Positions 4,578 to 63,800 of a stretch of DNA of 64,000 nt are shown here, piece by piece. The position numbers and the translations under genes were made by a program. This DNA is from Amoebophrya sp. A120. Taxonomy: Eukaryota; Protista; Dinoflagellata. A model generated the notes under the pieces. It made no database searches. It was not told where the DNA came from and saw only the letters and a program-made list of their open reading frames with translations. Location: positions 6,720,842 through 6,784,841 of the forward strand of contig CAJINV010000004.1 of NCBI GenBank assembly GCA_905178155.1, written 5' to 3'. Within the stretch, counting starts at the first letter, position 1, and every line of letters starts with the position of its first letter.

Positions 4578-7500
4578 ATGCCGCCGAAAGGTGGCGGCGC
4601 CGCCGAGCTGGAGGCGAATTCCACCTTTGAGGCCCGCGCGCCGGACGAGGTCCCCGCCCCCGAGGAAGTTGCCGCCTTCGAGCCGGCGACCAGGAGCCTG
4701 GCGCCGCGGCTGTACCCGGAATTTGATGCGGAAGCGATCGATCAAGTCAACTGGGGCTTCAATTTTGTCGAGTCGTACTACCCCGACGTGAATGTGGTGG
4801 ACAAAATCAACGTGAAGCAGAGCCCGGGTTCTTTCTTCGATGCCGACTTTCCGGTGTGGTCAAATGGAGTATGAGAGTGCACAAGTCCCCCTCCTCCTCT
4901 TTTGTATGGCATGAACGGCAATACAAGCATCAGCAAGAGTGCCGGTTTTGCATGACAAATTTGCGCTGGAGTGTAGTGCTATTTGGGCTGCCCGAACTTG
5001 TCATGCAAACAGTGCCAAGAGCCAAGGCGCAAATTAGGCATTTTGCATGACAAATGAGGGGGAGGGGGGGTTGTGCACTGTCAAATGGTGGCGCGGAGAA
5101 AATCGACAAGGGGGTAGCCGTATCCTGTGCAAAAGTATCGTACTCGTCTTGCAATCATGCATTACAAATCTTTCTCTTAAGGTAAATCAGCATTACAAAT
5201 TTTATCTCTCATGCTGAGGAAATTTGTAATGCATTTATACGATTACCTTTTGCAATGCATAAGCCGAGCGAACCACGGCCTGGCGCCGGGTCACGCACGT
5301 GAAGACTGCGGGACATACCTTGGAGCCACCTGGTATGGCGTTCTCAAACGTTACATTCTCAACTGTTACATGAATTTGTCATGCAAAAGAACCTTGTTAA
5401 GCCGGCAGATCCAGATGATCGAGCTGCTTCGCATGACAAATTTCGGGAGGGCTAGACAGCATCTAAATCTGCGCCAAACTTGTAATGCAAAAGGCGCAAT
5501 CTTCTTCCTTCCAATTTTGCCAGTCTTGCATTACAAATTCATGTTGTAAGAGTTGACGTTGAGAATGTAACATTTGAGAATGCCATACCTGGAGGTGCTG
5601 GAGGCGAGGAGGAAGGTGCGGGCGGAGATGCAGCCCCGGCCCCGCTGGTGCGATCTAGTTATTCATACATCTTCGTGATTTTCATTTTTATTGTCATGCA
5701 AGGTTCTAGTTCATTTTCATATTCTTTCATCCTCATACATAGTCATGTTCAAGAACGCGCACCAGCAATAGCAAAGAAAAGGACGCAGGAACAGGAAGTG
5801 GTCCTCACTACTACTCATTGCGTTCAATAAGATTCATGTGCTCCTTATTTGGATGAAATAAAAATGCAGGCCAGCGAGGGGAAAAGCACGCAAGATCAGT
5901 ATGACGAGTGGCTGGCCCCGCGAGGCGAGTCTTACTCGAAGTCCTGCATGGTTGCGTTTCTGGAGAACTGCAAACAGTCCGATATGTACAAGGAGCTGGG
6001 CGTCCCTGTGCCAAAGCCGCCGGCAGACGGTATTCATTGTACTCCGTTTATTGCGGTTTCGTGCTCTGTTCGCTGGAGAAAGAGTTGTAGAAAATGCAGT
6101 TGTACGGAGAAGTCGTCCGTTGCGACGTGCTGAATTTCAATTTTTTTCTGATGCAATTATTCGCTCCGAAACCAAAATCTCGCGACGCAAAATAAACAAT
6201 CGCTCCGTCAAAAAATATCCAGGCGACGAAGCGGAGCCGCAGCCAAAATACCTGCGCATGCCCGCCTGCATGTACGTGCAGCCCACGCAAGACGTGGGTT
6301 GCGCCCAGGCTATGGCGTCCGCTTTCGGGGTAATAGAGGAGAACTGCGCGGATAAGCTGCCGAACGGATCCTACCTCTGGGAACTGATCTACCCCCAGGC
6401 CGAGGTCAGTTTCAAGACGTTAGACCCACCAGCGCCACCCGCTGGGGAGGAGGAAGCGGCGGAGGTATGATTGAATCTTTAATCTTTTGTTTTGGTGCTG
6501 ATTGATGTGGTCCTCACGACCTAGTACCAGTACGCATCTGATTTCGGGTTGTTCGCTATTTGCATGCAGCAGCTGCACAAACGAAGAGGAAGATGATGCG
6601 GTAGTTAATACATCGAATTATGGTGTTGAAGTCCACAAGCACAACTGAGTTCATCTTCAACTTACTATCCAAATCAATTCTAAATTTCCGTCTCTCGAGG
6701 TTCCTCCCCCGCCGCCCCCTGGGAAATTGAAGCTCCCCATCATCAACCCCAGCGGGAAATACGTGGTGAAGCTCTTCATCATGGGTAAATGGCGGGCCGT
6801 CGTGGTGGACGACACCGTGCCCTGCGAGAGCCTCGACGACGGACAGACCTTCACTTCGCTGCTGCCAAACGCGTGCACGAACTCCATCCTGGCGCGCATC
6901 CAGCAGAACATGAGCAAAAAGCGCCGGCCGGCGAAGGTGGACCCCACTAAGGACTTGGACAAAAACGCCAGTCTTTGGTGCCAGATTCTGGGGAAGGCGA
7001 TCTTGAAGGTAAGTACGAATTCAGCTGTTCACGAATGAGGTTGAGGATTAGCTTCTGATGTGCAACTACAAGAAGAAAGCTCGTCAGCAGTTGCTTGTGA
7101 TTAACAGTGTTGATAGTTGTTCGCTGAATTCTTGCAAAAGGAGCATTGAATGCCAAGTGCAGGAGGGAGCATTCGGTAAACAAAGGACCTTGCTCTGCAA
7201 GGAGCGTACTCTCGCACGGCACGAGCTTCCTTTCACCACAGGTTTCCCGAGACTTCGACTTCGTACCCTTGCTCCACCTTTTAACCGGGTACATTCCGGT
7301 CGTGGAGCCCCTTACCTGGGCCTATGGATTGCAAAAGTGTCTGGGTCTGGAAGAATGCAACTTGTGATGCTGCATTTGGATTCCAAAAAAATCTGTATTG
7401 CATGAGCAGCAAAAGGAGTATAATTTCTGCTTCTACAAGGATAGGGCATTCGCATTTGTCATGCGGAATAGGCATCAAGATGCCTTCAAAAAATCTGTGA

Positions 7501-10500
7501 TGCTAGGGCGTGCATCACAGACATCATGGCTCATGCAAAACGTGCTTCACAACTCTCATAGTCTTCCAGACCCAGACATATTTGCAGTGCATAGGGCCCG
7601 GCTTTCCACGAAGATCGAGGACAAGAGCGAAATGCTGCACTTCATGCTGAAGCCGGAAAATAGTGAGCCCATGCAGCCAAGGAGCAGCTTCGTGGGCACA
7701 GGAGCAAATAATGCCGCGCAAACAGATAATTGTGAAGAGCCGAAGGAGAAGATTATTCCGCATTTGTTCGGCACGATTTGCGAAATCAACGAGAACAAGG
7801 ACGAGAAGGGGACATTGCTGCACAGGCAAGTGCGCGTGAAAATCGCGGGTGGGCTGAAGCTATGCATTGCAAAAGTACAACCGTATAACTAGCAGGCATC
7901 GCTCAACAATTATTTTCAAGAAGAAGAGAGTGTGACGTGTATTGCTTTTTGGGTTTGGCAACGATGTTTGTCAGGCCCAGGCGACGTGATGTGCAATTTA
8001 TACGAGCACTTTTGCAGGGGATAGAAGCCGGACTGGGCCATGGAGAGCAAAATGTTAAGGCACGTGAAATATCAAATGCAAATGTGTCTTGGTCTGGAAA
8101 GTTGTGATGCTAATGTCCGAATACTTATACGCAACCTGTGTTAGCAGGGGGGCGCGCATGAGAAGTTTCTGAGCGGCTTTAATGTCTAGCGTGCGCCGGC
8201 GCATGACAAAGAAATCGCCTTCTTGGATGACCACAAACAAGTGGCGCTGTAGCGCAACAAGCATGACAGACTTTTCTGTCTGGTTGGCCATCAAGGAGCA
8301 TGACAAACTTGCAACATTCTTCCAGGCCCGGAGATGATATTTGCAATGCATATGAAAATGGAGATGCCAGAATCGAGCGACAGTGAGGAGGACGCGGACG
8401 ATGACGATGGGAAAGATTCCGCGAGGCTGTCAGCGTCCGACCCGGGTGGCTTAACCGTAACGGCGGAGGAAATCGCGGAAAGAGAAAAGAAGAGGGAAGC
8501 GTATTATAATAGTTTTGGTGGTGGTGGGTTTTGTACTTAAATAACGTTATTAAGCAATACTCAATTTCTATTTCGTATTCGTCTTTGTCTTGCATGGAGT
8601 ACAACTCGTCGACTTCGATTTAGCATGACATGATCTCTGTGAAAGAATCTACGCGTCTTCCAACTACAGAGCGCGCAAGGCCCGCGAGGAGGCACGCATC
8701 GAACTTCGGCGCAAGTTGGAAGAGGGTGACAGTTTGACGCGGAATATCCTGAGTGAAAACGTCCCCACACCATAGTCAAGATGGGGAATCGGCTAGACAA
8801 ATCCACAAGCTTTGGCTCTTTTGCATGACAAATTTGGATTCGTAGTGTAGTGCTGTTTGAGCTAGCTCAGCAGCATCACAGATCTAGCATACCATGCTGA
8901 TTGGAGCATGACAAATTGCAAAGCACGATTATAAAATGCTTCTCATGGGGCTCCGCATGAGAAACATTTTCAGCATGCAGATTTGCATTACAACTATGGG
9001 GTGAGGACGTTTTTAAATAGGATACGGAATATCGACGGCGGCTACTGGATATGAAGTGCAAATATGTCTGGGTCTCCTTGAAGTAGAGTTTGGGCTTGTC
9101 ATGCACATTTTGCATGACCCGTCAGGTTTGTGATTCTGGTGCTAGCGTCACAGATTCTTTCAGAACGTCTTGATGCTAATTACGCATGACAAATGCCCTC
9201 TCCGCGACGTGCCAAGAGCTGACTCCTCTTGCTGCTCATACAGCACAGATATTTTTAGACTCCGCAGACAGCATTACAAGTCTCACACATTTGCAGTTGA
9301 TACTGGATCAACTGGACGGACGTGGTGGACCTGGCCACCCACTTCTCCTTTTACGAGTCCGCGGACAAATTCACCTGTGTGGAGCACTATGGATTGCAAG
9401 AGTGATCGTACTTGTACTAAAGATTGCAGTCATGCATTACAAATGTTCGCATTAAGGGAAATCCGCATTACAAATTCGATTTATCATGCAGAAGAAATTG
9501 AAATTTGTCATGCGCTAGCGATTTCTACTAGTTTAAGTTATTTTACTAGTACGAGTCTCTTGCAATGCATAAGCACGACTCGGTCCCGGTGGAAGACGCG
9601 GAGAGTTCGAAAGTCATGCTGTATCAAAAGGAAAAGACCCCCCTTCCCATATCAGAACGAAATTTCTGATGCTGGATTTGCGTACATAAATCAGCCTCGT
9701 CTTGCAGTAGAAGAGGACTGCAGGCCCATATCGAGCCTGACTGGAGAGGTTTTGTGACATAGGCGCCCAGCATGACAAAAGTCCATGCTGTAGGCCTAAC
9801 AGCATCACAAACCGCTGGCACAATGCGGGGGGCCTTCTCGGATTGCCTTCTTGCAAGACAGAAACGATTTGTGAGTACAAATCAGCATCACAAAAGATAT
9901 CTTTTCAGTAAGGGGAGGTGGGATTATTTTTCCTCGCGATATGCTGCCCACAAAGCCCATGCTCCTCACCGTCCGCGTCCGGCCGAGCAAAGGTGGACCA
10001 GGACAAACAGCGAGTGCAACAACTTCGCCCACTATCATTTGTAAAAACGTCCCCACCCCAGAGTCAAGATGGGGATTTTGCAACACATTTCTCGAGGTTT
10101 TGGGAGCCACGCATGACAAGTTGCAGGCTGTAGTGTATTGCAGTTTAGTAAGGGAAGCCGCATAACAAATCCATCTCCTCATCCTGTTTACAGCATTACA
10201 AGTTCCAAAATACAATGGGAAATGCCTCTTGTGAGGATGCGCATTACAAATGCTCTTGTGCTTGCAGATCTGCATGATAACTCTGGGGTGGGGATGCCTT
10301 TACACAGGAGACCCACCGATACTTCCTCATCCTCGGAAAAAATCACCGACTCCACGCTGCTGCTCTGGTCTGCCACGCAGCCCGACGGCACGCCTGAGGA
10401 GGGGGAAGAAGGACTACCCGACGAAGGAGCTAGTCCGGCGGACCCCGCGGAAACGGCGGCGCCAACCAAGGCGTCGTCGAAATCGTCGGGAAAAAAAGAA

Positions 10501-13500
10501 AAAGACGCAGCCGCGGGGTCTGGTACAACAACTTCCCAACAGGAACAACAGGGCGGGTCGACAAGTAGCACGGCCATTCCGACCTGCCAAGTCGTGCTCG
10601 CGGTGGAGCCGATGGACCCATCAGTACATGCGGGGAGCTACTTTTTCCGCGCGAACAACTGGAAGTTCAACAGCTACCCGAACACTACGAGCACAGGGTC
10701 CTCGGGTGGAAAAATATCAAACCCGTTCACGACCGGTTTCCAGAAGCTCGCAAATCACCTTTGTTACGCGAAGAAGGCCGCGGCTGGGAGTGCTGGTGCA
10801 GCAGAGAGCGATCCGGACGCGCCGGACCCGTTCTGCTACTTCGACTACAACCCGCTGGCGCTGTCTGCCACCTGCACACACGTGACGGGTCCGAACGCGC
10901 CAAGGGTGCAGGGGTGTTTCGACGTGCCGGTGGTCGCAAACGGGTCGGAGCTATGCTTCGCAAATATGTCTGGGTCTGCAAGAATGCAGGTTTCGTTTGT
11001 CATGCTTGTCTGGCATGACTCTTAGATCTGTGATGCATGAGCAGGACAAGGCCCTCTTGCCTGTCATGCAAAAACGCAGTTTGCCATGCAGTAAACGAAA
11101 CACATAAAAAACCGCTCAAAAAATTGTCATGCTTGGCGGCATATCGCAGTGCGCCCACCATTCACAGATTTGCATCACAACTTTCCGGACCCAGAACGAC
11201 TTGCATTTGATATGAGCACTGCTTCTTGCTGATCGAGGATCCGACAAAATCGGGAGCGAAACACCAGGTGTTGCTGAAAAAGTGCAGCGTGCCTAGTTCT
11301 GTATCAGGAGCCGAAACTACGACGCTGATGAACTACGAAGCCAGGGCGACATTCGTCGAGCCCGCGGACTACCTGGAGCAACGAGCACACATCCCGGTTC
11401 TGAAGATCGGAAGAGCACCGGACTGCGAAGACCCCCCGGTCACCTACCCAGCCGGGTACAGCCTGTGGGCGAAGTGCGAATTTAAATCCCGCCTCCCCGA
11501 CACGTATCCTGTGCAAAAGTATCGTACTCGTATAAATGCAGGTCGTTCATGACAGATCTGCTTTTTTAGCTTGTTCTGCATGACAAATTTCATTTTTCCT
11601 CTAGAAAAAATTTGTCATGCGTTTTGTACTAGTGCGATGCTTTTGTGATGCATAACACGGCGAAACGCACCGTGACCGCCTACACGCACTTCGCCGGCGA
11701 CCCGGAGTGCCGCCAGCACCTCCGGCTGCGGCTGTTGGTGCGGCGAAGAGCAGTTTCCGGAGAGCAACTTGTTTTCCCGGTTTGGTCAGAAATCGTGTTT
11801 GAAACGCCGTTCCTGCCCTTGTTTCAGTTCGACTTACCGGAGGGGGAGGACACGTTTTTGCTTTTGTTGGAGGGAAACATGTCGAAACCCGTTATCGAAC
11901 CGGTGTACTACGTGCACTTGTTTGAGCAACTCACCGAACCAACACCCGCGATCGCGCTGGAACCCTTCAGCGAGAGTTACGACGCGAAAAAAATCGGGTT
12001 TTCCAACAGAAAGTTGTACGAAGTGGCTTTGTCGGACCTGAAAACCTTCGATCCGTTGATTCTCCGGGAACGAATCACGGTGGCAGCCGAGCCGGTTTCG
12101 GAAGAGGAGCCAGCGGTGGTCTCCGCGTCCATGCGGGTAACCTGCAACTTTCCCGACGTTTTTTTTATCGCGAAATTGGTGTTGCAGCACCCGCCAAAGG
12201 AGGAGTTTCGGCCGGCGATGAAGGACAGATGGCAGTCGGGGGAGGAAGTTACGGAGGAAGAGGAATTGCCGGCGCTGGAATCGAATGTTAACGTAGATCC
12301 GGAGGAATTCGGCGGGAGGAAAAATTGGCTGTCCAGTCTGGAAACCATGTGCACGATGGAGGGCAAGGACGCGGTTTCTTTTATCCTGATTGAAAACGTC
12401 CCCACACCAGAGTCAAGACGGGAAATCTGCTAGACAAATCACACAGCTTTGGTTGTTTGGCATGATAAGTTTGTCCTCGTAGTGTGGTCCTGTTTAGCTC
12501 GCTCAGAATCATCACAGATCTAGCATAGCATGCCGATCCTCGCATCACAAATCCCAAAACACGCAAAACGAAATGCTTCTCATAGGGCTCCGCATGAGAA
12601 ACTTTTTTGGCATGCAGAATTGCACGACAACTCTGGGGTGGGAACGTTTTTACTCAGGATATCCTTCCCGCACCTGGAGCTCCAGGGCAACGCGACCTAC
12701 ATCCTGCAGATCGAACTAGACAGCAGCCGGTGCGTGGAGAGAACGGAGGTGCCGGTGAACAATGCGGAAATAGTCGCCTCTGAGGCGAATGGAGAGGAGC
12801 CAGCGGAAGAGGAGGAAGGAGCAGCTGAGAAGCCAGAGCCGTACAAATGGCGGTTAGAAATATTCGCCGACGGAGATCTGCAGGTCGGAAACGACACCAC
12901 TGAGTTTGACTTGGAAGCGATTGTCATGAAGAAATGGGCGAAACTGGCGGGCGTCCCCGCGGCGGAAAGGGAAGAAAAGGCGGAGGTAGCGAGGAAAGAA
13001 TGGCTCGAAGGAGGGGATCAAGGGTATATTATGAAAACCGTATAACGTTTCTTGTAGGTGTGGCTCCTGAATTATCATCGGTTGTAACAGACGGCAAGCA
13101 TCTTCCTGTATCGTGATGGTGCTTTTTGCAAAGTCTAAATCAAGATCAACTTTTTGAGTTGGCCGGGTCCACCTGAAGCTCATGCTCAATGTGTGAAACA
13201 AAAAGATGTGAAAATAGAGTAGGCGTGAGCCTGCGGGCCTAAATTCCGGTGGGTTGGTCGGTTGGTTGGTTGGTTTTGGACAGACGACATTTGAGCGAAT
13301 TTCCGATGTATGGAAACACGGCTTCGGGGTTCGGGCGCAGGATGGGCCTGCAGCTGCAGGCAGTTGTCCGTAACTTCCTCCGGTGGGTTGGTCGGTTATG
13401 TACAACGCAGAACCAAGTTAATCTCCGCTGCGCGCAGCACAAATCTGTGCTGCGCACAAATCTGTGCTGCGTGTTGCGCGCAAATCTGTGTTGCGCGCAG

Positions 13501-16500
13501 CTCGCCGGAGACACAAATCTGTGCTGCGTGGACGCAAATCTGTGTTGCGCGCAGCGCAAATCAGTGTTGCGCGCAGCTCGCCGCAGACACAAATCTGTGC
13601 TGCGTCGACGCAATCGGAGCTCCGGGGGGCCTCGTGAGGATTTGCGCGAGATAGAAAGAGGTCGGGGCTCCAGTGCTGCACTTTTCTCCAGCCAAGACCT
13701 GCGCTTCCTCAACCCAAGCAAAACACACTTGGGAAATAGAGACAAACTCGCGCAAAATTTGGATCAGCCCCCGCTTGGTCATGCCGGGCGGGCGGGGGCT
13801 TTTTGCGCAACCCCTTGGCTGCGCGAGCCCCTTGCTTGCAAACCCCTCGATAATAAATTGGGCCCCTGAGCATGCAGCTGCTCTCCCGCCCGGCTTCTCT
13901 TGAAGGCAGCCAAAGAATGAAAGTTCCACTTCTTGCCTGCCTTCAACATGTTTTCCCGAATCGGTTGTATGATTTCGGGGCTCCAGGCAGAAATCCGGGC
14001 CGCTGGCTAACAAATATTGGGTCGGGCGATTAATCTGCGCTGAATGATCAAGAAACCCAAACAAAGCCCACACACCTGCAAAGCCTAATCAGGAAGCCAG
14101 CCTCGCGCCGGTTGGGGCTTTTTAGAAGGGTCAAAAATATCTATCGCCCCACCCGCCCACCAGGCTGGTGGGTGGGTAGGTCGGTAGGCGTGGCCAAGGG
14201 GCAGCGCACGCTCGTGCCACCCACCCACCAGCGAGGTGGGTGGGTAGGTCGGTGGGCGTGGCCAATAGGCAGCGCGCGCTCCCTCGCCGCACCCACCCAC
14301 CAGGCTGGTGGGTGGGTAGGTCGGTAAGCGTGGCCAAGAGGCAGCGCGCGCTCCCTCGCCCCACCCGCCCACCAGGCTGGTGGGTGGAAAGGTCGGTAGG
14401 CGTGGCCAATAGGCGGCGCGCGCTCGTCTCAGACCCCCACCTGCCTGGTGGGTGGGCCGGTCGCTCGGCAGGCGTGGCCAATAGGCAGCGGAGGCTTGCT
14501 CCACCCACCCACCAGGCAGGTGGGCGGGTAGGTCGGTAGGCGTGGCCAAGAGGCAACGCACGCTCACCCCACCCACCCACCAGCGAGGTGGGTGGGTAGG
14601 TCGGTAGGCGTGGTCAATAGGCAGCGCACGCTCGCCCCACCCGCCCACTAGGCCCGTGGGTGGGTAGGTCGGTAGGCGTGGCCAAGGGACAGCGCACGCT
14701 CGCCCCGCCCACCCACCAGCGAGGTGGGTGGGTAGGTCGGTGGGCGTGGCCAATAGGCAGCGCACGCTCGCCGCACCCACCCACCAGGCTGGTGGGTGGG
14801 TAGGTCGGTGGGCGTGGCCAATAGGCAGCGCGCGCTCCCTCGCCCCACCCATCCACCAGGCTGGTGGGCCGGTAGGTCGGTAGGCGTGGCCAATAAGCAG
14901 CGCGCGCTCCCTCGCCCCACCTACCCACCAGGTGGGTGGGTAGGTCGGTAGGCGTGACCAGTAGGCAGCCGGCTCTGGGTGGAAAGGCACGCATAGGTAG
15001 GTAGGTGGGCCGGTGCGATCATGGTATTGCAATGAATCGAAAAGACGCCTGGTAGGTGGGTAGGTAGGCAGCTGCGGCAGTAATAGTGGATGAATCTCAG
15101 AAAAACACAAAACACAATGTAGCGGGTTCGGTGGGTCAAATGTCGTCTGTCCAAAACCAACCAACCAACCGACCAACCCACCGGAATTTAGGCCCGCAGG
15201 CCCACGCCTATTGTGAAAATATGACAAACAGGGAATACGAAGCCGTGTTTATGTGCAACATCGACACGGCCGAATCTACGGAAGCAGAAGATCCGCCAAA
15301 AACCAACGCGCAGAAAATCGAGGAAAAATACACACACTCCCTATCCAAGGATGGGCACATGAACCCGCACATGTTGATATCAAATGTAAAAATGTCTGGG
15401 TCTGGAAGGTTGGAGCTTGTGATGCTAATTCTGGATGATGCAAAAATCTGTGTTGCATGAATGCCAAAAGTTGCCCACTAAGTTGAGAGGAAGTTTCTCA
15501 TGCAGGATAGGCATGATAGCGATAGGGATCCCGCAGAATCTGTCATGCTAGGTCCTGCACTCCAGATGACATGGATCATGGAAAATCTGCATGACAAGTG
15601 TCAGAATCTTCCAGACCCAGATATTTTTACAATCCATAGCTGAAATTTCTCTACGACACGCTAGAGAAAGAGCCCCTGATATCCTGAGTAAAAACGTACC
15701 CACACCATAGTCAAGATGGGAAATCGGCTAGACAAATCCACAAGTTTTGGCTGTTTTGCATGACAAATTTGGATTCGTAGTGTAGTGCTGTTTGAGCTAG
15801 CTTAGCAGCATCACAGATCTAGCATACCATGCTGATTGGAGCATGACAAATTGCAAAACACGACTAGAAAATGCTTCTCATGGGGCTCCGCATGAGAAAC
15901 ATTTTCAGCATGCAGATTTGCATTACAACTCTGGTGTGGGTACGTTTTTACTCAGGATACCTGATCGAGGTGGACACGGGCATGGGGCCGAAATTTGTGG
16001 ATTTATCCAAGGAGGAAGTGGGCACGTCCGAGGCAACCACCCAGAAATGGGAAGGCTATAAGGAGGAGTGTTCGAAGTCCATTGAAATGAACAAGGAAAA
16101 CTTTACGAAGGTCGTGGAATGGTATAAAGTTTTTGAAGATGTTCATGTGGATGCTTCATCGATTTGGGCTTGGTTGGCGCAGCAGTACCCGTAGCGGATG
16201 CAGAATCAGTTGAATATTATCAGTTGTTACTTTCGCATATGAGAATGAGGGTGCTAAATGTTGTTTCACGAAAACAGAACGGCTGCTCGTCTTTTGCAGC
16301 GCAATGGCAATTATAAAGAACCAAGTATTATAAAGAACCAAGTAAAAGAAAAAGAAAATAAATGCCTCCTGTGTCTAGGTATGCCGCGTTACCATACGGC
16401 GAGACGGCACTGACAGAGACGCGCGAAGCGCTAGTCGCCTACACGAACACGCGATGGGAGAAGCGGGATGCGTTGAGTGAAACTTTATTGAAGGAGGAGT

Positions 16501-17215
16501 TCGACCTCGAAGCACTGAAAACCGCAGTCAGTGAAGCGATTGAGGCGGATGTCAAGGTAGTACAATATCGTGTGTACTAGTACGAGGACCCTGGGGAAGA
16601 CGAAGAGTTTAGTACTTGGGTTTGTCATGCGAGCTGAACATCCATGCATGTTGCAAAAATGCATACCAAAACGCTTGATACTAATCCAAAAAAACACAGA
16701 TCATCAGCCCGGACCTGGTATCCTCGGCCGAGGCCCGTGTGGACCTTGATGCGAGGATGGCGACTCTGGAAGAAAAAGTGACCGCGTACGAGGAACTAAA
16801 GACTGCCCTTGAGGAGCCAGTGGAGGAAGTAACGGAAGAGAGAACGAAGCAGGAAGAGCAGGCGGTGACATTGGTATTGATAAAGATTTTTTTGTCATGC
16901 ATAACCTGCAGCAGGAGTTCAGATTCCAGTATTATCAATGCATAGTCGTGCTGGCCACAACTAACTGCTGGCCTATTTTTACTCTTAAGTACGCTCCTTG
17001 TTACGTTGGTCCCTTCGAAAGAAAGAGCCAGCAAAACAAGAACCTACTTTACTTAGGTCGACGAGCTTCGCGTCGAGCTGGAGGCGGCGCAGGCCACAGT
17101 CACCAAAATCCTCCCGGTGGGGGAGACCGCGGTGCCGCTGGGCGAGCGCTGGGCAGGCCTGTCCGAGAAGGTCGGTGCGATCACTGCACCACCAGAGGCG
17201 GGAGAGGACGAGTAG
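4578..17215 (+). CDS. Androglobin-like / calpain-like large multi-exon protein (16 introners plus several GT-AG introns)
   Basis: Exons encode LYPEFDAEAIDQVNWG, WRRV, LWELIYPQ, INPSGKYVVKLFIMGKWRAVVVDDTVP, LWCQILGKAILK and GGYWINWTDVV, resembling the androglobin calpain-like domain; frame rejoins across the elements checked; final exon ends GEDE-TAG at 17215; single-gene extent inferred. Confidence 0.7.
4870..5085. mobile_element. Introner family B (~220 bp)
   Basis: TATGAGAGTGCACAA...TTGTGCACTGTCAAA; TSD TGGAG/TGGTG; removal restores SNGGAEKIDKG. Confidence 0.85.
5121..5261. mobile_element. Introner family A (~150 bp)
   Basis: TATCCTGTGCAAAA...TTTTGCAATGCATA; TSD AGCCG. Confidence 0.9.
5334..5587. 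mobile_element. Introner, single-copy type (254 bp)
   Basis: 30-bp TIR TATGGCGTTCTCAAACGTTACATTCTCAAC, 28/30 match; TSD CCTGG. Confidence 0.9.
7323..7593. mobile_element. Introner family D (~270 bp)
   Basis: TATGGATTGCAAAAGTGTCTGGGTCTGGAAG...CTTCCAGACCCAGACATATTTGCAGTGCATA; TSD GGGCC. Confidence 0.9.
7861..8023. mobile_element. Introner family A (diverged)
   Basis: TATGCATTGCAAAAGT...ACTTTTGCAGGGGATA; TSD GAAGC. Confidence 0.85.
8070..8352. mobile_element. Introner family D
   Basis: TATCAAATGCAAAT...ATTTGCAATGCATA; TSD TGAAA. Confidence 0.85.
8745..9024. mobile_element. Introner family C (~280 bp)
   Basis: TATCCTGAGTGAAAACGTCCCCACACC...GGACGTTTTTAAATAGGATA; TSD CGGAA. Confidence 0.9.
9050..9302. 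mobile_element. Introner family D
   Basis: TATGAAGTGCAAAT...ATTTGCAGTTGATA; TSD CTGGA; removal restores GGYWINW. Confidence 0.85.
9388..9571. mobile_element. Introner family A
   Basis: TATGGATTGCAAGAG...CTCTTGCAATGCATA; TSD AGCAC. Confidence 0.9.
9622..9941. mobile_element. Introner family E (~320 bp)
   Basis: TATCAAAAGGAAAA...TTTTCCTCGCGATA; TSD TGCTG. Confidence 0.9.
10033..10311. mobile_element. Introner family C
   Basis: TATCATTTGTAAAAACGTCCCCACCCCAGAGT...ACTCTGGGGTGGGGATGCCTTTACACAGGAGA; TSD CCCAC. Confidence 0.85.
10952..11212. mobile_element. Introner family D
   Basis: TATGCTTCGCAAATATGTCTGGGTC...GACCCAGAACGACTTGCATTTGATA; TSD GGAGC/TGAGC. Confidence 0.85.
11505..11654. mobile_element. 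Introner family A
   Basis: TATCCTGTGCAAAAG...CTTTTGTGATGCATA; TSD ACACG. Confidence 0.9.
12382..12661. mobile_element. Introner family C
   Basis: TATCCTGATTGAAAACGT...ACGTTTTTACTCAGGATA; TSD TCTTT/TCCTT. Confidence 0.9.
13428..13612. repeat. Short irregular tandem repeats of CAAATCTGTG(C/T)TGCG
   Basis: About 7 copies of the motif inside the 2-kb TIR element. Confidence 0.8.
14145..14970. repeat. Tandem array of 12 units of 68/72 bp, each with a CCCACCCACC...GGTGGGTGGG hairpin
   Basis: GCGTG anchor at 14188, 14256, 14328, 14400, 14472, 14540, 14608, 14676, 14744, 14812, 14884, 14952. Confidence 0.9.
15378..15638. mobile_element. Introner family D
   Basis: TATCAAATGTAAAAATGTCTGGGTCTGGAAG...CTTCCAGACCCAGATATTTTTACAATCCATA; TSD GTTGA/GCTGA. 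Confidence 0.9.
15680..15959. mobile_element. Introner family C
   Basis: Perfect 28-bp TIR TATCCTGAGTAAAAACGTACCCACACCA; TSD CCTGA. Confidence 0.95.
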
Positions 17216-32051: not shown

Positions 32052-32177
32052 CGACAATTCGTTTTCATATTAGTCCTCCCCAGGACACAAGGAAGCTGTC
32101 TCTCTTAATCCTTGCTTTTTTAGTTCATTTCTCCATCCTTTTCCATATCCTTTTAGCAAAAAGCCTGGCAGCTGCAT

Positions 32178-47145: not shown

Positions 47146-48939
47146 ATGAATTTTGCACGCTATAAAAGGCTGAAGCACAACCACAACCGCGGCAACAAGG
47201 AAGTCGAGGTGCAGCTTATGAAGGACTGGGAAGATATTGCGGAGGGGAAACGCACTGGGAAAACCAAACTTGACGAGAAGAACGCACTTAGTAAGGCGCG
47301 AAATCGAAGTAAAACCCCAACTTCCTCGTCTTCCTCCTCCTCGGGAGCGGGTGTTCAAGGGAGTCGGAACCGCAGCGCGAGTAGAGGGGGAAGTGCTGCT
47401 CGCTCGAGTTCGCGTCCAGCAGCACGCAGTTAAGGCTTACAGAAATTAGTTCCTACCCTTGTTCCCGAAAGCTTAGGTTTGAAAAAAATGGAAACAAACC
47501 GCGAGGGGGGTTTAGCTTGCAAACTCTCGCAGTCGCTTGGAATGGCCGAAGGCCATGAAAAATGTGGCTGGGAAGCAGCCAGCGCGCGAGCTTGGGGGAG
47601 AATGGGCAGCCGTCTTCGGCGGGGCTGCCGCGCTTCTCCTGCCGGGCTGCCAGGAGTGGGCCTTGCGCTCCTGCTCGTTGAAAGCGAGTTGCTTTGAAGT
47701 GCCCTGCTATTGGAAACGAATTACTTGCAATGCCTTGGCATAGTCAGTATTTTGTTTGTTGTGCTAGTATATTGCAAGCAATTCGTGTTCAGCGCCACGT
47801 CGTTAAAAGCAACGCGCCTTCAATATAAGTAAGGGGTCGCCCAGCAGCTGCCACACTCTAGCCTTTCGGAAATGCGTTCCCAAGGTTTGCCGGAAATCCT
47901 GGGAGCACATTTCGGCAAGGCCCCCACGTCGGATTTGTGCTCTGGCCGGCGACAGGTCTGAAGACCTCGCGCAAAATCGTCCGACGTCGGGGAGATAAAG
48001 AAGTGCGCCCCTAGGATTTTCGCCGCGTCGAGACCTGGGATCATAGTTCTGCAAAGCCCCCGCCTAAGATGGTCTTGTGCGGGTTTTTCTGTGTTTCAAG
48101 GTCAGAATACAAACTCGGATAGCACTCTCGTGCTCTGGCCTGCAGAAGTGTGCTCCTAAGATTTGTTGCTATCGAACTCAAATCCGAGAACTCCTCAGAT
48201 GCGAGCTCACGTCCGAGAACTCCTCACATGTGAGCGCACATCCACGAGTTAGCAGGTCAGAAGAACTGCGCAGCATAATCTTACGCGGCAGACTTACAGC
48301 AATGCGCTCCTTGGATTTGTGTGCTGTGCCTCCAATTGCCTCACTTGGAGTCGCGGCCCAAACTTTCACGCGCAGAGCGCGGCGGTTCGCAAGTTTAGCC
48401 GAACCGGCGTAACGATTTTGTTTCTGGTTTTCTGACATTGTGTGCCCATCACAGGATTCCTGTGATAGGCACGCAACACTTTGGGGGGGCCAGAAATAAA
48501 GCTGCCGTGCCACTTCGGCTGTACTTGCGAACTTTGTTTGGTAAGTCGCGTGCGTAGGACGTGTAGTCAGACCGGGACTATCGGTCGAAACGCAGATCCT
48601 ACGCACCTGCTTCAAAATTTTTGAAAGCCGAAGCTTTTAGGAACTGCTCAGGGAACTAATTTCTGAAAGCTCTAACGCAGTCGGTCCAGTTCGCGTCCAG
48701 CAGCACGCAGTCGGTCCAGTTCGCGTCCAGCCGACGTTCCGTCAAGTTCCAGTGTTGAAGCCGCCAAACGGGGCCCGCCACGACTGGTCCCCGCTACGTC
48801 ACTGCGAAAGGCGATGCAAAAAAAATTGCAGCAAATGGAAACGAGTTTGCCAAGCATGCGGGATCCGAAACAAAAACTGAGGTTATCACACAGAACATCA
48901 AATAAACTTAGCTGCATACGATCAAGATCAACATACTAA
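47146..48939 (+). CDS. Ser/Arg-rich coding segment interrupted by a 1246-bp element (possibly the last exon of the preceding gene)
   Basis: Frame ...SSSRPAARS continues RSSSRPAARSRSSSRPADV... to TAA at 48937-48939 once 47430-48680 is removed. Confidence 0.55.
47430..48675. mobile_element. 1246-bp TTA...TAA TIR element inserted in coding sequence
   Basis: TTAAGGCTTACAGAAATTAGTTCC / GGAACTAATTTCTGAAAGCTCTAA, imperfect pairing to ~60 bp; TSD CGCAG at 47425-47429 and 48676-48680. Confidence 0.88.
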
Positions 48940-50276: not shown

Positions 50277-52945
50277 ATGGACACCGGCACGAAGCAGTTT
50301 TTCCTCGAGAGGAAAGAGGAGGACCCGGAAAACGGAAAATGCTGCGACTGCGGCGCACCGCACCCGCAATGGGCTTCTGTGAACCTCGGCTGCTACTTCT
50401 GCCTCCTGTGCTCAGGTATGAAAACATGTAGAAACAGGAAGTTCGACTTTTTGCTCAGGTGTCGAGGCTATGAGTGATGTACTTGGACCTGCTCTTTCGT
50501 TGTACGAGGATAAATCAATGCAAACGAACCTATCACCAGAACGAAGCACATCAATCTCTATCAAACTTGTTTAAAATCCCGTAAAACAGGGCAGCACCGG
50601 GGCCTTGGTGTGCACATCAGTTTCGTCCGCTCAATAACGATGGACACCTGGAGCGACAAACAGAAAGGTACTTATTTTGAATTTTCATATCGGATTTTCA
50701 CGACTTTTGAGAAAAAAACACGGCTGTTTTCTCATGCTCGACGACTGTGCAGACGCAGAGCGCAACTACAAAATCATCCAATGTCCTCCTCACCCCAGCC
50801 TCCATGCAGAAGGGCGGTAACGCGCGTTTGAAAAAGGCCCTGGAAGACAACGGGGTCTCGGCCAGCGGCAAGATCAACGAGAAATACAACACCAAAGCCG
50901 CGGAGTGGTACCGGCAGACGCTGCGCGCCGAGGTCATGGGCGAGCCGCTACCCCCCCTTTTGGCTCCCGGGACCGGACCGCTGCCGGCCTTCGAAGCGCC
51001 AGCGGCGTCCACTGCAGCGGCGACCGGGTCGATTACGTCGAACGGCGGGGGATCGTCGTCGTCCAGTTCTTATGGATTGCAAATATGTCTGGGTCTGGAA
51101 GGTTGGTGGAACTTGTGATGCTAGCTCTGGACTCTGAAAAAATCTGTATTGCATGACCAGCAAGAGGAGGCTAGTTTGTGCTACGCGGGGAGGGCGTTTG
51201 TCATGCGGAGTAGGCATCGAGAAGCCCTCTAAAAATCTGTGATGCTAGGTCGTGCATTACAGACATCCTGGGTCATGCAAAATATGCATGACAGACAAAC
51301 CCAGCAACATTCCAGACCCAGACACTTTTGCATTTGATAGTTCTTCCGGGGGCATGACCGGCTTCGGCTCCGCGCCACCGCCGCAGCAGGATCGGGGAGG
51401 TATAAATTTTATGTGGTTCAGATAATTATGATCTGATGTCGGGAAGCAGCAACATGGTGCGCGCAATCTTGAAGTTTTTTTGTAAATCGAGAAATGCCGC
51501 AGCCGCCTCGATCCAAAATGAGGCTCCCTGAATAGCTTTAGCTTTCTCAAAACAAAAACCAAATGACCGACCCTCCCTCCAGGCAACAACGGCGACGACC
51601 TGTTCGGCGCTGCAGCGGCGAGCTTGTGGGGCTTCGCGGGCACCGCCGCGGCCTTCGCGTCCAAGGCGAAGGACGCGGCCGTTGAGAAGGCAAAGCAGAT
51701 CGAGATCCCGCAGGACAGCCAGAGCTTCATGCAGAGCGTCGGAACCACGGTATTGGTTTATCTGGAAGATGCGCGTGTAATTTTCCCGATGTTGAAAAAC
51801 TCTTCCGGCAACCACCACCAGCTGCCCGCGCCCCGCACAGATGCCCCGATTGATACGCTTATTGCGCCCGCGAGAAAGCGCTGACACGCTGCTGCTGCTG
51901 CGCCTCTGAGCAAGTACTCGTCCGAGGCATCTTCACATACAACCTAGTGGGCACTCGTTGGTTACGGTTTTCGTGTGGTTTGTGCGACGATTTCCTTTTG
52001 TTGCCAATGTCGTTTCATCCGCCCGCCCTGCAATTTGCGCGCGCCGCCGCCCCGCTTCTACGGTTTTTTGTGTTTTTTGTGTGATGCATTTGAAAGACCA
52101 CCAGTCCCAGCCGAGCGTGGTAAAAAAGCGCTTCTGTGGACGAAGATTCAATATATTGTGTACAATTAGAACTTGAAAATTTTTCAATCATACCCCAACG
52201 ACCACAAGTCCAAAACAACTCCGCACGACAGATGAACGCCGGTCTGAACAAGGCCAAGGAGCTGTCTGCAAAGACCTACGAAACGGTGACCGACGAGCAA
52301 TTTCTGGAAAAGGTAAAAGCAAAAACCGCCGAGACCGTGGAAAAATCGAAGGAATTGGCGGCGCAAAGCTACGAGAAATCGAGGGAGTACGCGGAATACG
52401 CACAGGTCATCGTGAAAGAAAAGCTGGACGAGAATGGCTTCCCAATCTCCGGCACCAACGGCGCAATGAACCACGGCATGGGGAGCAGCGGTTCCAGCTA
52501 CAATCCAGGAAGTGGCGGTGGTTCGTCAAATTTTGCCGGTAGTAGTACAACGACCTACGGCAACATGCCGCCGCCCGCGAGTCAGAACCTCCCGGACCCC
52601 CATTCCGCCGGAAACACCAGCGGGGACGCGTTTGGAAGTTTGGCCGACGACCTGGACTTTTTGAACACAGGGATGGCTGCAAACTCAACATCATCTGCAG
52701 CGCCGATAAATACCACAATACCAGTGACAACGACGAGCGCAGGAACAATGGCCCAACAGCCCCCGCCTCCAGCGCCGGTGCAACTTGGACAGGGCGGTAC
52801 TAGCGTGAACCTGCTCGGAGATGCTGCACCCGGTTCCAACGGTGTAGTAGCGGCGAGTAAACTGGACCCCGCAATCTCGTCCGGTGGGAATGGCGACGCG
52901 AAAAAGCCCGGCGATGACTGGTTAGATGATTTTGCGGATTTTTAG
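50277..52945 (+). CDS. ADP-ribosylation factor GTPase-activating protein (ArfGAP1-like)
   Basis: [46 protein letters not shown] zinc finger; [17 protein letters not shown]; C-terminal [10 protein letters not shown]; several GT-AG introns and one introner. Confidence 0.9.
51071..51339. mobile_element. Introner family D
   Basis: TATGGATTGCAAATATGTCTGGGTCTGGAA...TTCCAGACCCAGACACTTTTGCATTTGATA; TSD GTTCT. Confidence 0.92.
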
Positions 52946-56800: not shown

Positions 56801-59800
56801 GGTGCAAAGAAGTGTTGTCAGAACGGAATCCCACAAACCGGAATTCGAAGACGAACACCACGTGATGCATTTACACGAGCCGAACACGGGGTTATCCGGG
56901 GATCTTGCGATCACGGGGTTCGGCGATTTGGAGGGGCACTTGATCCCGCACGAACCCGTGGCGTACAGGAGTTCTCGTGGATATCAAATGTAAAAATGTC
57001 TGGGTCTGGTAGATTCTGAGATTTGTCATGCATATTTCGGATCACGCAAGTCCAAGTGGCGTCTGATGCAGGCAAAAGCATCACAGGTTTTGAGCACGCC
57101 TCATGATGCCTGTCCCGCATGAGAAACTTCCTACTTGCGTGCCAAGAAATGGACAGCTTTTGGCGCTCATGCAACACAAATTTTTGTGTGTTCCAGAGTT
57201 TGCATCACAACAGTGAACCCTTCCAGACCCAGACATTTTTACATTTGATAGTGGACCAGCATCATCAATGCGGTCGAGCTCCTTAAAGCAGCTCGAGTTG
57301 GAACTTCTCCAAGGTCGTGCTGCTGGCAATGAAGATTTTTCCTCGAACATCAAGTCATACAAGCAAAATAGATACTTGGAAGAAGGGGATGCGGGTCCCG
57401 CAACTACTTCCGATTTAGAGGTCGAGGAGGATTCGCGGTCAGATTCCGAGCGAGCGCAGGAATTGCAGGAGCTTTTGCAAAGTTCAGAGGACGCGGAGGA
57501 ACGAGCATCTTCGTCGAGAAGCGACTTCGCGGCGGCTTCCGGGGGGTTTGTTCAACAGGAGGGCAATGATTTCAACCGTTTTGAAGTAGATGAGGAAGAC
57601 ATCGAAACGGAGCTGACCCCCTTCGCTGGAGTGGTAGAGAAAACCACAGAGCATTCCATCCACAACCCACTTAGCCGCGCAGCGGCTTCGGCGCACCCGG
57701 AACAGAAGAGCAAAACTTTTCCACCAGAGCAAAGGAAGTCCATGAAAGCGGATGAGCACTTACCCCAGTCCGCTGTTTTCTCCACGGCCCACGGAGTCAT
57801 CGACGAAGATTTATCGAACTACGCAAAGCCGCACCCGTTTGCCGATAGAAGCCCAGTTCTTGTTAGTGCCGGTGGATCTTCAAATTTCGCGGTAAAGGAA
57901 CTTGATACAGAAGTAGAAGGTTTGGCGGAAAACGAACCTCGAGTCGAAGAGGATGAGGACTTCTACTTTGACGACGGCACCAACCAAGACTACTACCGTG
58001 CGGGCCAGTCGACGATCTACGATCAGCTGCGCGCGAGCCAGAACCGCCACCCCTCGGCGAAAGTGCAGAAGGGGATGTCCATTCGGGTTTCCAGCAACAA
58101 ACCAGACGATAAAAATTACAGTGATTGGCTCACGATGTACGAACAAGACGGCGTGACGGAGCAAATACATTTTCACACAAAAACACAACTAATCCTCGCG
58201 GAAGACTATGACAAGTTCTCTACCCAGAAGCAGAAGTTTGAAGCCGTGGGGAACAGTACCATTTACGACAATCTGCGCGCGAGCTCCTCTCCCCACCCGG
58301 AACGGAGAACAATGAAAACACGGAGTAGCTCCTCCTCCGCGATGAAGGTCGATAGCATGAAAGGGGTGCCACTAGAAGTACCTGCCGCCCCAGGGTCATC
58401 TTTCGGCGGATCTTCGAGTGCTGACAGAATGACCCGCGCGAGTGCGGCAGAACATCAGAATAACGTCTACTTCCACACGGACGAGCATGTTTTGCTGATG
58501 CCCGAGATCGATGAGGTGTCAGCGCAAAACCTGAATTTACATTTCACGAAACAGCAGAAACTCCTGACGGTCAGCAAGCAGACGAAAGAGGAATTTCTTA
58601 TCGCGAAACGGGAAGAGGAACTGCTAGCGAACATCCGGAAGGAAAAGTACAAAAATCCTTTGTTTCCGCGCTTCGTCACGGGGGACACGTTGACTCCGCG
58701 CACGTTGATGCAACAAGCGACGGCACGGAAGTTGAAACAAAGAACTTTTATCTACGACGTGGAGGAAGAATTAGATCAAGCGGAGAGGAAGGCGGAGGAC
58801 GCAACCAAGGACAAGGTCGGTCTTACACAATCGGAACAACTCGCAAAGCAGGAGCAGGAGAAGAGGGAGTTACTGTGGGGAATGAATGCAAATGGAACTA
58901 CAGCAGGAGATCATATCAACGACGGACAGCTGGCACTGCAGGTGAATCCCGAGGAGGCTGCCAGCAAGTCCAAGCGCGACAAGGGATTGAAAAGTAGGTC
59001 CAGGTCGCCAGGAACTTCTTCTCCAATGGGTATTAAAAAGCCCGCTTCGCTGCTGAATCCTAGGAGGTCTAAATCAAACCCAGCATCTTCGAGAGCAGGA
59101 GCTTTGATCGCTGCGCCAGCAGGTGGCTTCAGGTTTAACTTTCCGGAAGCTGCAACTACGGCTACACAGCTGCCGCCGCCTGAAGCAGGACCAGGGACCG
59201 CACCAGTTGCAGGCGTTGTTCCCTCACCTGTGCTAGCTGGTCCACCCGGGGCGTTCCATTTAGCACTCCTGAACACGACCATACTGCCACCGAAGCATCA
59301 AAGCGCGGCGCTGCAACAAAGTCGAAGCCGGAGCCGCAGTCCGGAGGGTTTCACTAGTAGTGCAGCAGTTCCTAACAACTTCATCCCGCTCATACAAGTA
59401 GACCCGCTGCCCCCCTTGCAGCAATTCGACGAGCGGTTTCTTCTCAACGCAGCGAAGCAACTCCCCGTTTCTCAGCGGTTCGGCGAGGTCAACGGACACG
59501 TGGGGGCGAAGCTGACGGAGTTGCACGGCCACGATGTGGGAACGTACTACAACTATGGTGCAGGAGCTACCAACACAAACTCAAATAGCAACTTCGACGC
59601 GACCACAAGTAAAAATCCAGAGGACAATAATATCATGGGTTTTGACACGCCGAGGACGATTATCAAAAAGGCGTTTACCACGCAACCAGACTTGGCAGCG
59701 ACGATATACAAGCAAACGGTGGAGGAGATTCTCACCGCCTCCGCCAGCTCTATGGGAGATGTTGTACTGGACAGCAACGCATACGCGTTGTACCAAGGGG

Positions 59801-60896: not shown

Positions 60897-63800
60897 ATGG
60901 CGGGACTACAAGCCGACAAGGAAAACTTCAAGATGCTGATGACCGCTGCTTCAGGTTACACTGGTGTCGGCGGGACCAGTTCAGCAGACGAAGGCACCAC
61001 GGCGACTTCAGTACAGCGGAAGACGAGCAAAGAGGCGCAGATGAATGCTCTCTCTGTCTCTGCGCGAGGGAGGACGGCGCAGCAAGGAGGTGAAGCTGCA
61101 CCGGCGCTCAGCACCGGCAATATTTCTAATAGCAGTCGTGCCGAAGTAGACGGAAAAGTGTTAGCCGGAGCATCATCATCAACTGCGAAAGCCCCCGTTG
61201 CCGTGATCGAGGAGGAAGACCCGGAGATGAATCCAGAAGTGACCTCTAGTAGCGACAGTACCGGAAGCAGGAGCAGGACCGCAGGCGCTGCAGTCTCGAA
61301 GATGTCTTCAACAGCGGCGAGGACAGCGACAGCACCACCAGGAGCGATGAACAAAACTGTAGCAAATGTTGACCCGTATGTGGGGTACAGGGTGAAGAGC
61401 AAGCTGACCCTGTTTTTCCTGACTGGCGTGTACGTCTTCTATGGGGTGGTGATGGGAACCTACGTCCCCTTCCTTGTGCCGCTCGAAGCGATGCGTATGG
61501 CTTCCACCTGGCAGAGCGAGTACGTCATTCTGGAAAAAACGTTGTACGGGCTGACCCACGCCATCGCCCCGGTCGTCGGGGCTTTGTCGGACGAAACCTT
61601 CCACAGCTGGGGCAAGCGGCGGCCCTGGTTGGCGGGCGGGTCGCTGTTGGTTGTCTGCGCGTTGACGATCATGTACTTGGCGTCCTCCCAACTGTTTCTC
61701 GGGTTCTACCTGTTCGGCCTGGCGGGCGTCATGGTCGGGAAAAACCTGGTCGTTTCCTGCACGGTCAGCTTCCTCGCGGACGTCGTCCCGTCGAAGCTCA
61801 CCGCGGTGGCCAGCGGCTTCGCGATCTTGCAGTGCGCGGTGGGCTGTTTGATCGGGTTTCTGATCCAGTACTTCCTGGCCGAGAGCGCCGTGCAAAACAC
61901 CTACGTGTTGTTGCTCGCGGTCTTCGTTTTGATCTCCGTGCTTTTCTTCGCGTTCGCCCGAGAGCCACCCAGCGACTTGCACCAAGAACAACGCGGCGGA
62001 GTTTTGGCTGCTTCCGTAGGAGTTGGAGGTGGCAGAAATTTACTTCATCGCAGGGGAGATGAGCAAACGCCGGCGAATTCGAACATGAATTTGCATTCCG
62101 ATCAGAATTACGGCACTATCGACATAAACGACGGGGTAGAAGTAGATGGCGCGGCCACAACCTCCACCGCCGGCGACCCCCAGAGGAACGAGTTGGCAAC
62201 TAAAGATAGATCGGAAGTGGAGAGGCAGAAGCAATCAGAGGCGCTGAAGAAAAACTGGTTCCATGTGCTCTACCACGCGCTGACCGTTTCCTTCGACTAT
62301 CACCTGCTGTTTTGGGTCCGCATTTTCTTCTACTCCTCCTGTGCAATTTTCCCCTTCGCGCTGTTCTACATGCGCGACGCCCTGCTAATTCCCGACAAGG
62401 CGGACGCGATTCGTGTGCTGTCCACGGTGTCGATCCTGGGGCAGGCCTCCCTCGCAGTGTTCGCCGCTTTCGCCGGGCGAATCGTTTCGAAAGCGAAGGA
62501 GCAGTGGTATCTGATGATGACGGGAATCGTCGTTATGGCTGTCATAGGCACTGCAAAAGGATTTTCAATCGGGTTTGTTATCGTACCATATCACAAGTCC
62601 AACCAAGAAGTTTTGCATACTTTTGAAATGATGAAACTGATACGCAAATCTTCATCTTTTTTCATGAAGAAAACAAGCCACATGCACATCATGTGCATAG
62701 CCATAGAAGTCCTGCAAGCATAAAGTTAAGGAAGGTTATGGCCCTCTCCCTCTCGAGGTCGGCGCAAGAGATTTGCTACTCTGACATGCCTGCAACTGTG
62801 TGTTCTACTTTGGCTTTTGTACAAATGCGAGGATCCTTATTTGCACCGCATACGACGTTTACGGCGGGTTGGTGGCGTTGCCCTTTTTCGACAACTACAA
62901 CGTCCCGGGAGGGGGCGCGGTTCATCCCGTAGAAGCGGAGTACTATGCGCACAAGACAAGTACGACAACCACTGCCGCCGATGGAACGACGGAAACCGGT
63001 CCTGGTGCAGGAGCGTCGACGTCGGAAAATAACAGTACTTCTGCTAAACAGCAGCTTCCCTGGGTCGCCATCCATATCTTCTACGTGATTGCCCTGCTGT
63101 ACGGTGCGGCCCAAGCCATGTTTTCCATTGGCGACATGGCGTTGGCGCTCAAGCTGGTGTATGCATCGCAAAGGCATCGTACTAGTATGAATTGCATCAC
63201 AAATTTTGGCAAGAAGAAAAATTGAATTTGTGATGCTGTTTCACCTTAGGAAGGAGATTTGTCATGCATACTTGCAATTAGTACGAGGGAGTGCGATACT
63301 TTTGCACAGGATATGGTGCCGGCAAACGTGGGGAACGGCACGGCCATGGGAATCTTCACCCCGAGTCCGACGTACGGTTTCGTCGTGGGATCGGTCTTCC
63401 TTGGCGTCTTGCTCCGGTTCTTCCAACTGCCGGCGAATGTTTCAGGTGGAGCTAGGTTGTTGAACAAGGATCTACTTCACAGTAGTTCGTCCGGCAGTAC
63501 TTCTACTAGCTCGACTGCATCTTCAACGAGCACCAGTGCGTCAGGTAGTAGTAGTTCTACTTCAGGAACAAGCAATTTGCTGGAGCTCGCGCAGTTCGCC
63601 GGGCAAATGCCGAGTGGGGCAGGAGGAGGTCCTCATGGGGCGGCCGGAGGAATCGCGGATTTTAACGGGGTAAAGTGGACGCCCGAGTTTTCCGTCCTCG
63701 GGCACCAGGCGCTCGCGCTGACCAGCTTCACGTTTGTCGCCTTCGCCTGGATTCTGCTGAGCAAAGTCGACACCGACCGGGCGCTGCTGTTGACGGAAAA

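Follow-up and report, generated by a model that had tools for sequence, protein, structure and literature searches.

Which molecule reads a short DNA word that recurs inside many different families of intron-forming transposon-like elements (introners)? This question is raised by a 64,000-nucleotide stretch of the dinoflagellate Amoebophrya sp. A120 (assembly GCA_905178155.1, contig CAJINV010000004.1, positions 6,720,842 to 6,784,841 of the forward strand), hereafter the window. Its elements run from TAT to ATA between 5-nt direct repeats and are bounded by terminal inverted repeats (TIRs). A preliminary description, made from the DNA letters, reported the internal motif GCAT(G/T/C)ACA(A/G)AT in families with unrelated TIRs, and proposed either a common site for one trans-acting factor (transposase or removal factor) or nested stems through which both ends would be drawn to each other. 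On balance, we favor a protein site on double-stranded DNA, most likely the subterminal array of a putative shared transposase; the motif is not mainly an RNA signal.

Judged by sequence, the window elements match the published A120 introners, and the elements themselves are already known. Passages of Farhat et al. 2021 (PMC7789003) describe inverted repeats consisting of TAT, seven freer bases and at least three A, with direct repeats of 3-5 nt. The window elements share the TAT inverted repeats, the direct repeats, the organization in repeated families and the non-GT-AG removal. The same passages state that the way in which Amoebophrya introners move and are spliced is open, and their introner descriptions hold no internal motif, spacing rule or link to GT-AG introns, unlike what is described here. 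Searches for the motif in PMC7789003 (sections 11 and 16 plus its supplement), in passages of both PMC12130899 and PMC11282704, and in the wider literature did not find it; the PMC12130899 supplement was covered for the genus name only, in 12 of 14 files. The present analysis adds tests of conservation and covariation, a phase that depends on orientation, a spliced element without sites, and sites in GT-AG introns. A defined 11-mer with a phasing rule provides a pull-down bait, a signature for a true master element, and a mutable site for separating mobility from splicing.

Element collection and removal

Forty TAT...ATA candidates were detected in the window. Four were removed as crossing or chance pairs, 36 were kept, and five with a changed end were added to give 41 elements. 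For a larger sample, metagenome contigs were scanned with a 30-33-bp pair pattern, yielding 134 loci, of which 90 (367 kb, one assembly) match the window elements. The other 44 were excluded as unrelated repeats, except L081, which resembles the TAT...ATA system but has no BLAST hit and was left out. None of the three loci on viral contigs is similar to the elements. A motif-blind detector then called 272 elements, 36 from the window, in 29 clusters; a few are counted twice, as L021 and L069 are 99.5% duplicates. The same detector made no calls on reversed sequence. Direct repeats are perfect 5-nt copies in 228 of the 272 elements and carry one mismatch in the remainder. The ends follow one grammar, TAT-S-x-x-x-x-x-x-AAAA (72 window ends, 544 ends in the larger set), in which TAT itself was a condition of detection. 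Predicted exons contain 205 of 230 elements, and the six largest families are inserted in both orientations at about 50:50.

Removal was assessed with likely-RNA contigs from four runs, whose RNA status is guessed and which represent at most two samples of one study. All 11 elements in 7000-12700 are skipped in each of the four contig sets, each together with five extra bases and without GT-AG borders; 8745-9024 and 9050-9302 are skipped in a single joint. When every element is excised along with a single copy of its repeat, the lengths of the likely-RNA contigs are obtained exactly (1388 and 1642 nt, one open frame). Matches of the raw-read RNA run X9 to the window are only short, at 90-95%, and are uninformative.

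Distribution and conservation of the motif

The strict motif GCAT[GTC]ACA[AG]AT matches the window 70 times (39 on the + strand, 31 on the - strand) against a shuffle mean of 0.31, and none of 100 shuffles reaches 70. Background frequency does not explain it, and the reported presence in both orientations is borne out. All 70 matches fall within the 41 elements, which measure 141-327 bp. Six elements have no strict copy, 13 have one, 10 have two, 11 have three and one has four. The earlier statement that nearly every copy carries several sites is correct for a looser profile built from the strict matches (180 interior sites; at least two in 40 of 41 elements; none in 7861-8023), but not for the strict motif. 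Among the examples quoted earlier, 8745-9024 has three strict and five profile sites, consistent with the claimed three or more; 5334-5587 has three and four, where four had been counted; and 23625-23930 has two and seven, where about five had been counted.

Profile density is 20/kb within elements versus 0.62/kb elsewhere. Predicted exons hold seven sites where five are expected in 152 kb (counts without a significance test), and window intergenic DNA (14.3 kb) holds no core against 1.2 expected. The reported rarity in exons and intergenic DNA is upheld, with the correction that GT-AG introns are enriched (see below). In the larger set, 154 elements lack the search pattern; 149 of these have at least two sites, two have one and three have none. 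A search of element interiors for a second motif common to many families found none. As described earlier, neither of the long TTA...TAA elements (30196-32051 and 47430-48675) has a site. These two elements are likewise flanked by 5-bp duplications, and their TTA start matches strain A25 introners as reported in a passage of PMC7789003.

Across the 272 elements, core columns are conserved at 0.92-0.99 against 0.77 for the interior, a difference that is significant in eight of eight families. Position 5 is free (conservation 0.74), with A in one of 443 cores. The same contrast was obtained when sites were labelled from one copy and the remaining copies were compared. With the motif and the ends masked, an alignment at z>4 is obtained for only six of 210 pairs of families, and a clear one for a single pair. 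The description of the TIRs as unrelated is overstated, since all share the end grammar, but the interiors are non-homologous. Empty places of the site lattice show little trace of the motif. Grouped by decay of the flanking duplication, core mismatches amount to 0.043 (195 copies), 0.057 (77) and 0.085 (26), figures given without a significance test; other conserved columns decay alongside the cores in older copies. This decay fits selection at transposition and not afterwards.

Spacing and helical phase

Most direct copies are separated by 31-33 bp, whereas the usual distances between inverted copies are about 16, 36, 47 or 68 bp. Neighboring sites follow a ~16-bp grid, matched by none of 300 nulls in the window alone and by none of 1000 in 19 family-level units; after removal of the direct gaps of 30-33 bp, one of 1000 nulls matches it. 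A model in which direct copies are separated by whole helical turns and inverted copies by half turns, scanned from 8 to 40 bp in the 19 units, peaks at 10.5 bp (score 0.47; 0/2000 nulls), and shuffling of the orientation labels gives p=5e-5. Gaps in phase number 27 of 39 for direct pairs versus 8 of 31 for inverted pairs. Ignoring orientation, a 10.5-bp period gives no signal (0.02) and appears only with the half-turn term. The first sites cluster at 10.5-bp steps from the termini, with R of 0.74 (25 sites) and 0.49 (13 sites), R being given without null comparison.

A putative transposase-binding array

Conservation of the core, strand neutrality (409 + versus 406 - sites on the transcribed strand of 186 elements with confident strand) and a helical phase tied to the termini are together what a DNA-binding oligomer would read. 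The proposal of one trans-acting factor agrees with these properties and with the non-homologous interiors, except in its form as a strict removal factor, which is weakened because the site-less element 7861-8023 is nevertheless skipped exactly. In the mechanism that we propose, GCAT(G/T/C)ACA(A/G)(A/G)T is the predicted binding site of a single transposase, or of a single family of transposases, by which all TAT...ATA families would be moved. Several DNA-binding domains of an oligomeric transposase, comparable to the BED domains of hAT enzymes, would occupy the same face of the element and assist in pairing its ends. If new copies arise only from those with a good array, every family would keep its array despite diverged interiors. 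Splicing would depend mainly on the ends, through a TIR hairpin, rather than on the motif.

Precedents for such arrays come from several papers. The hAT elements Hermes, Ac and Tol2 carry subterminal repeats to which BED domains bind, and 150-200 bp of each end is required in the case of Ac and Tol2 (PMC10368747). The Herves transposase binds subterminal motifs (PMC3143072), hAT5 elements make 5-bp duplications (PMC12730594), and in the Lemi1/Emigrant system the mobilizing protein binds the TIRs and, cooperatively, subterminal repeated motifs (PMC1636448). Like the window elements, hAT elements combine short TIRs with a number of short repeats that face both ways and lie no more than ~200 bp from the ends (PMC10368747, PMC3143072), and hAT5 shares the 5-bp duplications (PMC12730594). 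The window elements present hAT5-like features: a 5-bp target duplication, short TIRs and words repeated in both orientations near the ends. The hAT sites described in PMC10368747 are 4-8 bp long and specific to one element each, whereas the 11-mer of the window is common to many families, follows a helical phase and also occurs in host GT-AG introns. Lemi1/Emigrant resembles the window system as a MITE (miniature inverted-repeat transposable element) with subterminal repeated motifs, but is pogo-like, comprises one MITE family and is not an intron (PMC1636448). The TIR itself resembles the motif: a score at site level is reached by eight of 58 ends, compared with 1.1% of positions taken at random (p=0.022 by column permutation). 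Based on the hAT, Herves and Lemi1 precedents, the likeness between TIR and motif, the decay of cores and the removal of a site-less element, we take the site of a shared transposase as the most likely explanation.

Several observations weigh against it. A transposase family was matched by none of the 25 open reading frames scanned, and a search of the loci turned up no transposase and, in the 90 loci, no long element; the passages of Farhat et al. 2021 (PMC7789003) report no transposase in A120 and argue against transposase mobilization. The sites used in the conservation test were defined by the profile, which makes that test partly circular. Redundancy among sites would weaken the age comparison, in which TIR columns decay as well. 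The score of a plain 16.4-bp lattice, 0.59, is above the 0.47 of the helical model, and the support from direct copies stems from the 30-33-bp gaps alone, other direct gaps scoring -0.19. The pair pattern that preselected the extra loci has this very spacing; the window alone nonetheless shows it as well. Finally, 83 predicted GT-AG introns that have neither a TIR nor an end signature nor flanks resembling a family contain 15 intact cores against 2.1 expected, where a site serving a transposase only should have decayed with the ends. Their intact cores would require a later use of the site by the host, which is the weakest step of the proposed mechanism.

Sites in GT-AG introns and a possible host factor

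The GT-AG introns of the window and loci were predicted by our own gene model. Before filtering, they hold 46 strong sites versus ~4.5 expected. Filtering left 89 introns, from which five with element similarity (relics) and one picked by the search pattern were dropped to give the 83 counted. At the strict profile cut, these contain 19 sites against 0.67 expected, while five control variants stay at background. TIR relics are not apparent in the introns (11.1 vs 10.8, p=0.086), and the ends score like background. For the flanks of the intron cores the score is 10.8, close to the null of 10.4 and below the 12.9 predicted for a relic at 20% divergence. The ratio of one-off to intact excess is 1.36 in introns versus 0.82 in young elements; the intron cores are almost as intact as those of young elements. 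Thirteen of the 15 cores are GCATGACA, compared to 53% (p=0.007), and GTAT donors are found in 17 of 25 site-bearing introns versus 22 of 58 other introns (p=0.016). The window alone has two cores in 10 introns against 0.26 expected (p=0.03). Both introns lie on the + strand and fit the sizes of likely-RNA contigs: 16557-16699 has one intact core on the - strand (center 16626) and a short stretch like the end of the 150-bp family, and 16874-17056 has one intact core on the - strand (center 16896) and no TIR.

These data suggest that the host keeps the site in introns after the ends vanish. Because intact cores occur in GT-AG introns without TIRs, a host factor is the main rival explanation, which we regard as possible though clearly less probable than the transposase site. 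In this scenario, the motif is recognized in chromatin by a DNA-binding protein of the host, either a native one or a transposase domain that has been domesticated, and introns are thereby marked to be removed or processed during transcription; introner arrays make exon insertions tolerable, and old introns retain one strong copy after losing their ends. The core enrichment over controls at background, the near-null ends and flanks, and the lean of site-bearing introns to GTAT donors speak for such a factor, as do the core-free intergenic DNA of the window and the concentration of elements in predicted exons. In addition, U1 small nuclear RNA (snRNA) was not detected in Amoebophrya according to the passages of PMC7789003. 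On the other hand, 58 of the 83 introns have no site, and 7861-8023 is removed without any. A single site would suffice, yet in most families 4-6 are kept, in fixed positions that are in phase with the termini, and the cores decay in older copies. The introns are model-predicted, and those with an exact core that could be compared with contigs are the two above, one with a family-like relic (16557-16699). Long non-coding stretches are also enriched (25 vs 6.6), and the family library used to mask relics is small next to the 1954 families given in the passages of PMC7789003.

A combination of both explanations is conceivable, but we advance it with considerable doubt. A protein derived from the transposase would bind phased GCATNACAAAT arrays on the DNA, hold both element ends in one complex during transcription and hand them to the spliceosome of a host in which U1 snRNA was not found; GT-AG introns born from old introners would keep one strong site after their ends vanish. 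If the intron cores are kept by selection, ordinary introns would be traceable to transposons, and a transposon signal would have been taken over by the host.

Three predicted GT-AG introns without TIRs, in L037 (104 nt), L058 (127 nt) and L078 (137 nt), each have two or three sites, spaced by 16 or 32 bp; the counts exclude the L037 intron, which the search pattern had selected. The top-enriched 7-mer of predicted GT-AG introns is CTTCATC (15 introns versus 1.85 expected), ahead of the motif core.

Less likely explanations: RNA stems, descent and splicing enhancement

Compared with a host factor, pairing of the motif with its reverse complement in the pre-mRNA, forming nested stems that join both ends, is improbable as the function of the motif. 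Folding of the interiors does surpass that of shuffled sequences (mean z -1.4 to -4.8). Predicted folds pair the sites in register in the 150-bp family (32 of 47) and in other families (26 of 46 and 32 of 59). Because families with inverted copies are predicted to fold into nested stems, such stems may form there. The prediction does not extend to the 280-bp family, in which all sites of the 40 copies point in one direction and in-register pairing is predicted for just two of 80 sites. Nor does the motif behave as a covarying stem: matching at position 5 reaches p<0.05 in only one of 29 pairs of opposite orientation, and column pairs with mutual information formed no helices. Consensus folding gives almost no structure at default settings and nested stems for the 150-bp family at relaxed settings. 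Folding is equal on the sense and antisense strands (p=0.25, 78 elements), the TIRs alone suffice to pair the ends in 76 of 78 predicted folds, and stems do not need identical letters across unrelated families. Among sense-strand TIR mismatches, G-U exceeds A-C (177 vs 128, p=0.006), as an RNA stem would have it; unpaired interior columns, the control, lean the same way without reaching significance, and the excess is not separable from mutation bias. Pairing of ends by TIRs recalls euglenid nonconventional introns, in which a TIR-based RNA stem joins non-canonical ends according to passages of PMC11282704. The conserved letters of the euglenid introns are at the ends, whereas the window elements have an internal word without stem covariation.

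Inheritance of the motif from one ancestral element or tandem unit, without present function, is very unlikely. It would account for the one grammar common to all ends and for a 19-nt block around GTAGTGTAGT that is common to the 280-bp and 220-bp families (z 4.6; e.g. window 8838-8856). However, the otherwise non-homologous interiors and the excess core conservation argue against simple descent. The excess is found in all eight families while position 5 varies, so the conservation contrast already contradicts descent alone. Empty lattice places are nearly traceless, and the phasing depends on orientation. The 19-nt block is a sign of partial common descent or of a second site.

Least likely of all is a single-stranded RNA-binding splicing factor for which the motif would be an intronic enhancer. 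Confinement to introns, with exons near expectation, speaks for it, but the motif has no fixed transcript strand (409:406). In 11 of 186 elements the transcript contains the reverse complement alone, and removal extends to a copy of this kind, 19312-19596, as judged from likely-RNA contig size and the open frame of its DEAD-box helicase gene.

Elements of the window

Sites in this section are those of the looser profile. The first element of the set, 4870-5085, lies before position 5121, where the set had been said to start. It belongs to the 220-bp family and has a decayed right end and three interior sites. The other members are 22448-22667 (right end changed, four sites), 36655-36876 (five), 38003-38220 (four) and 40648-40863 (five). 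The 150-bp family comprises 5121-5261 (four interior sites), 9388-9571 (four, skipped), 11505-11654 (three interior, skipped), 19830-19979 (four interior), 23025-23174 (three), 24618-24768 (four), 25919-26074 (three), 33078-33233 (two interior), 36939-37092, 37787-37940 and 38355-38510 (four each), and 63160-63313 (three interior).

To the 265-bp family belong 7323-7593 (five sites, skipped), 9050-9302 (five, skipped jointly with 8745-9024), 15378-15638 (five), 51071-51339 (six) and 56982-57250 (five). The element 10952-11212 is of the 265-bp type (six sites, skipped), and divergent 265-bp-type elements are 8070-8352 (five interior sites, skipped) and 46484-46767 (three interior sites, duplication offset by one base). 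In the 280-bp family, sites are on the + strand in 8745-9024 (five, all +, skipped jointly with 9050-9302), 10033-10311 (five, right end decayed, skipped), 12382-12661 (five, skipped), 15680-15959 (five), 39893-40171 (six) and 40282-40563 (five, right end changed). They are on the - strand in the two copies in reverse orientation, 19312-19596 (five, all -, within the DEAD-box helicase gene) and 25553-25835 (six). The 320-bp family is represented by 9622-9941 (skipped), 38981-39307 and 41238-41555, with five sites each, and elements of 210 bp by 24090-24300 (210-bp element, five sites) and 38617-38824 (210-bp family, four).

Two elements previously regarded as singletons belong to small families of the larger set: 5334-5587 (four sites) to one of five copies and 23625-23930 (seven sites) to one of three. 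The singleton 7861-8023 has no interior site above threshold and is skipped exactly, as element plus 5 nt.

Other observations

The paralogous genes at 32170-35010 (one element) and 36312-41600 (11 elements) form a natural empty-site comparison. Introners lengthened by inserts that break the site array occur at L011:239-1051, L028:632-1465, L058:6184-6998 and L019:505-1608, and represent a natural test of the importance of the array for splicing. A 740-bp repeat of ~90% identity, unrelated to the TAT elements, is present at window 3574-4305 and 26143-26881 and at L072:8512-9250. The GT-AG intron 13024-15231 encloses a long-TIR element with an 8-bp direct repeat (13217-15213), which contains a 68/72-bp tandem array (14072-15020) and palindromic repeats (13430-13610) that score as seven motif variants. 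The palindrome GGCATTACAAATGCC occurs in 30-nt repeats at the unrelated loci L025, L026, L027, L065, L068, L074, L077 and L093, which have no TAT...ATA elements.

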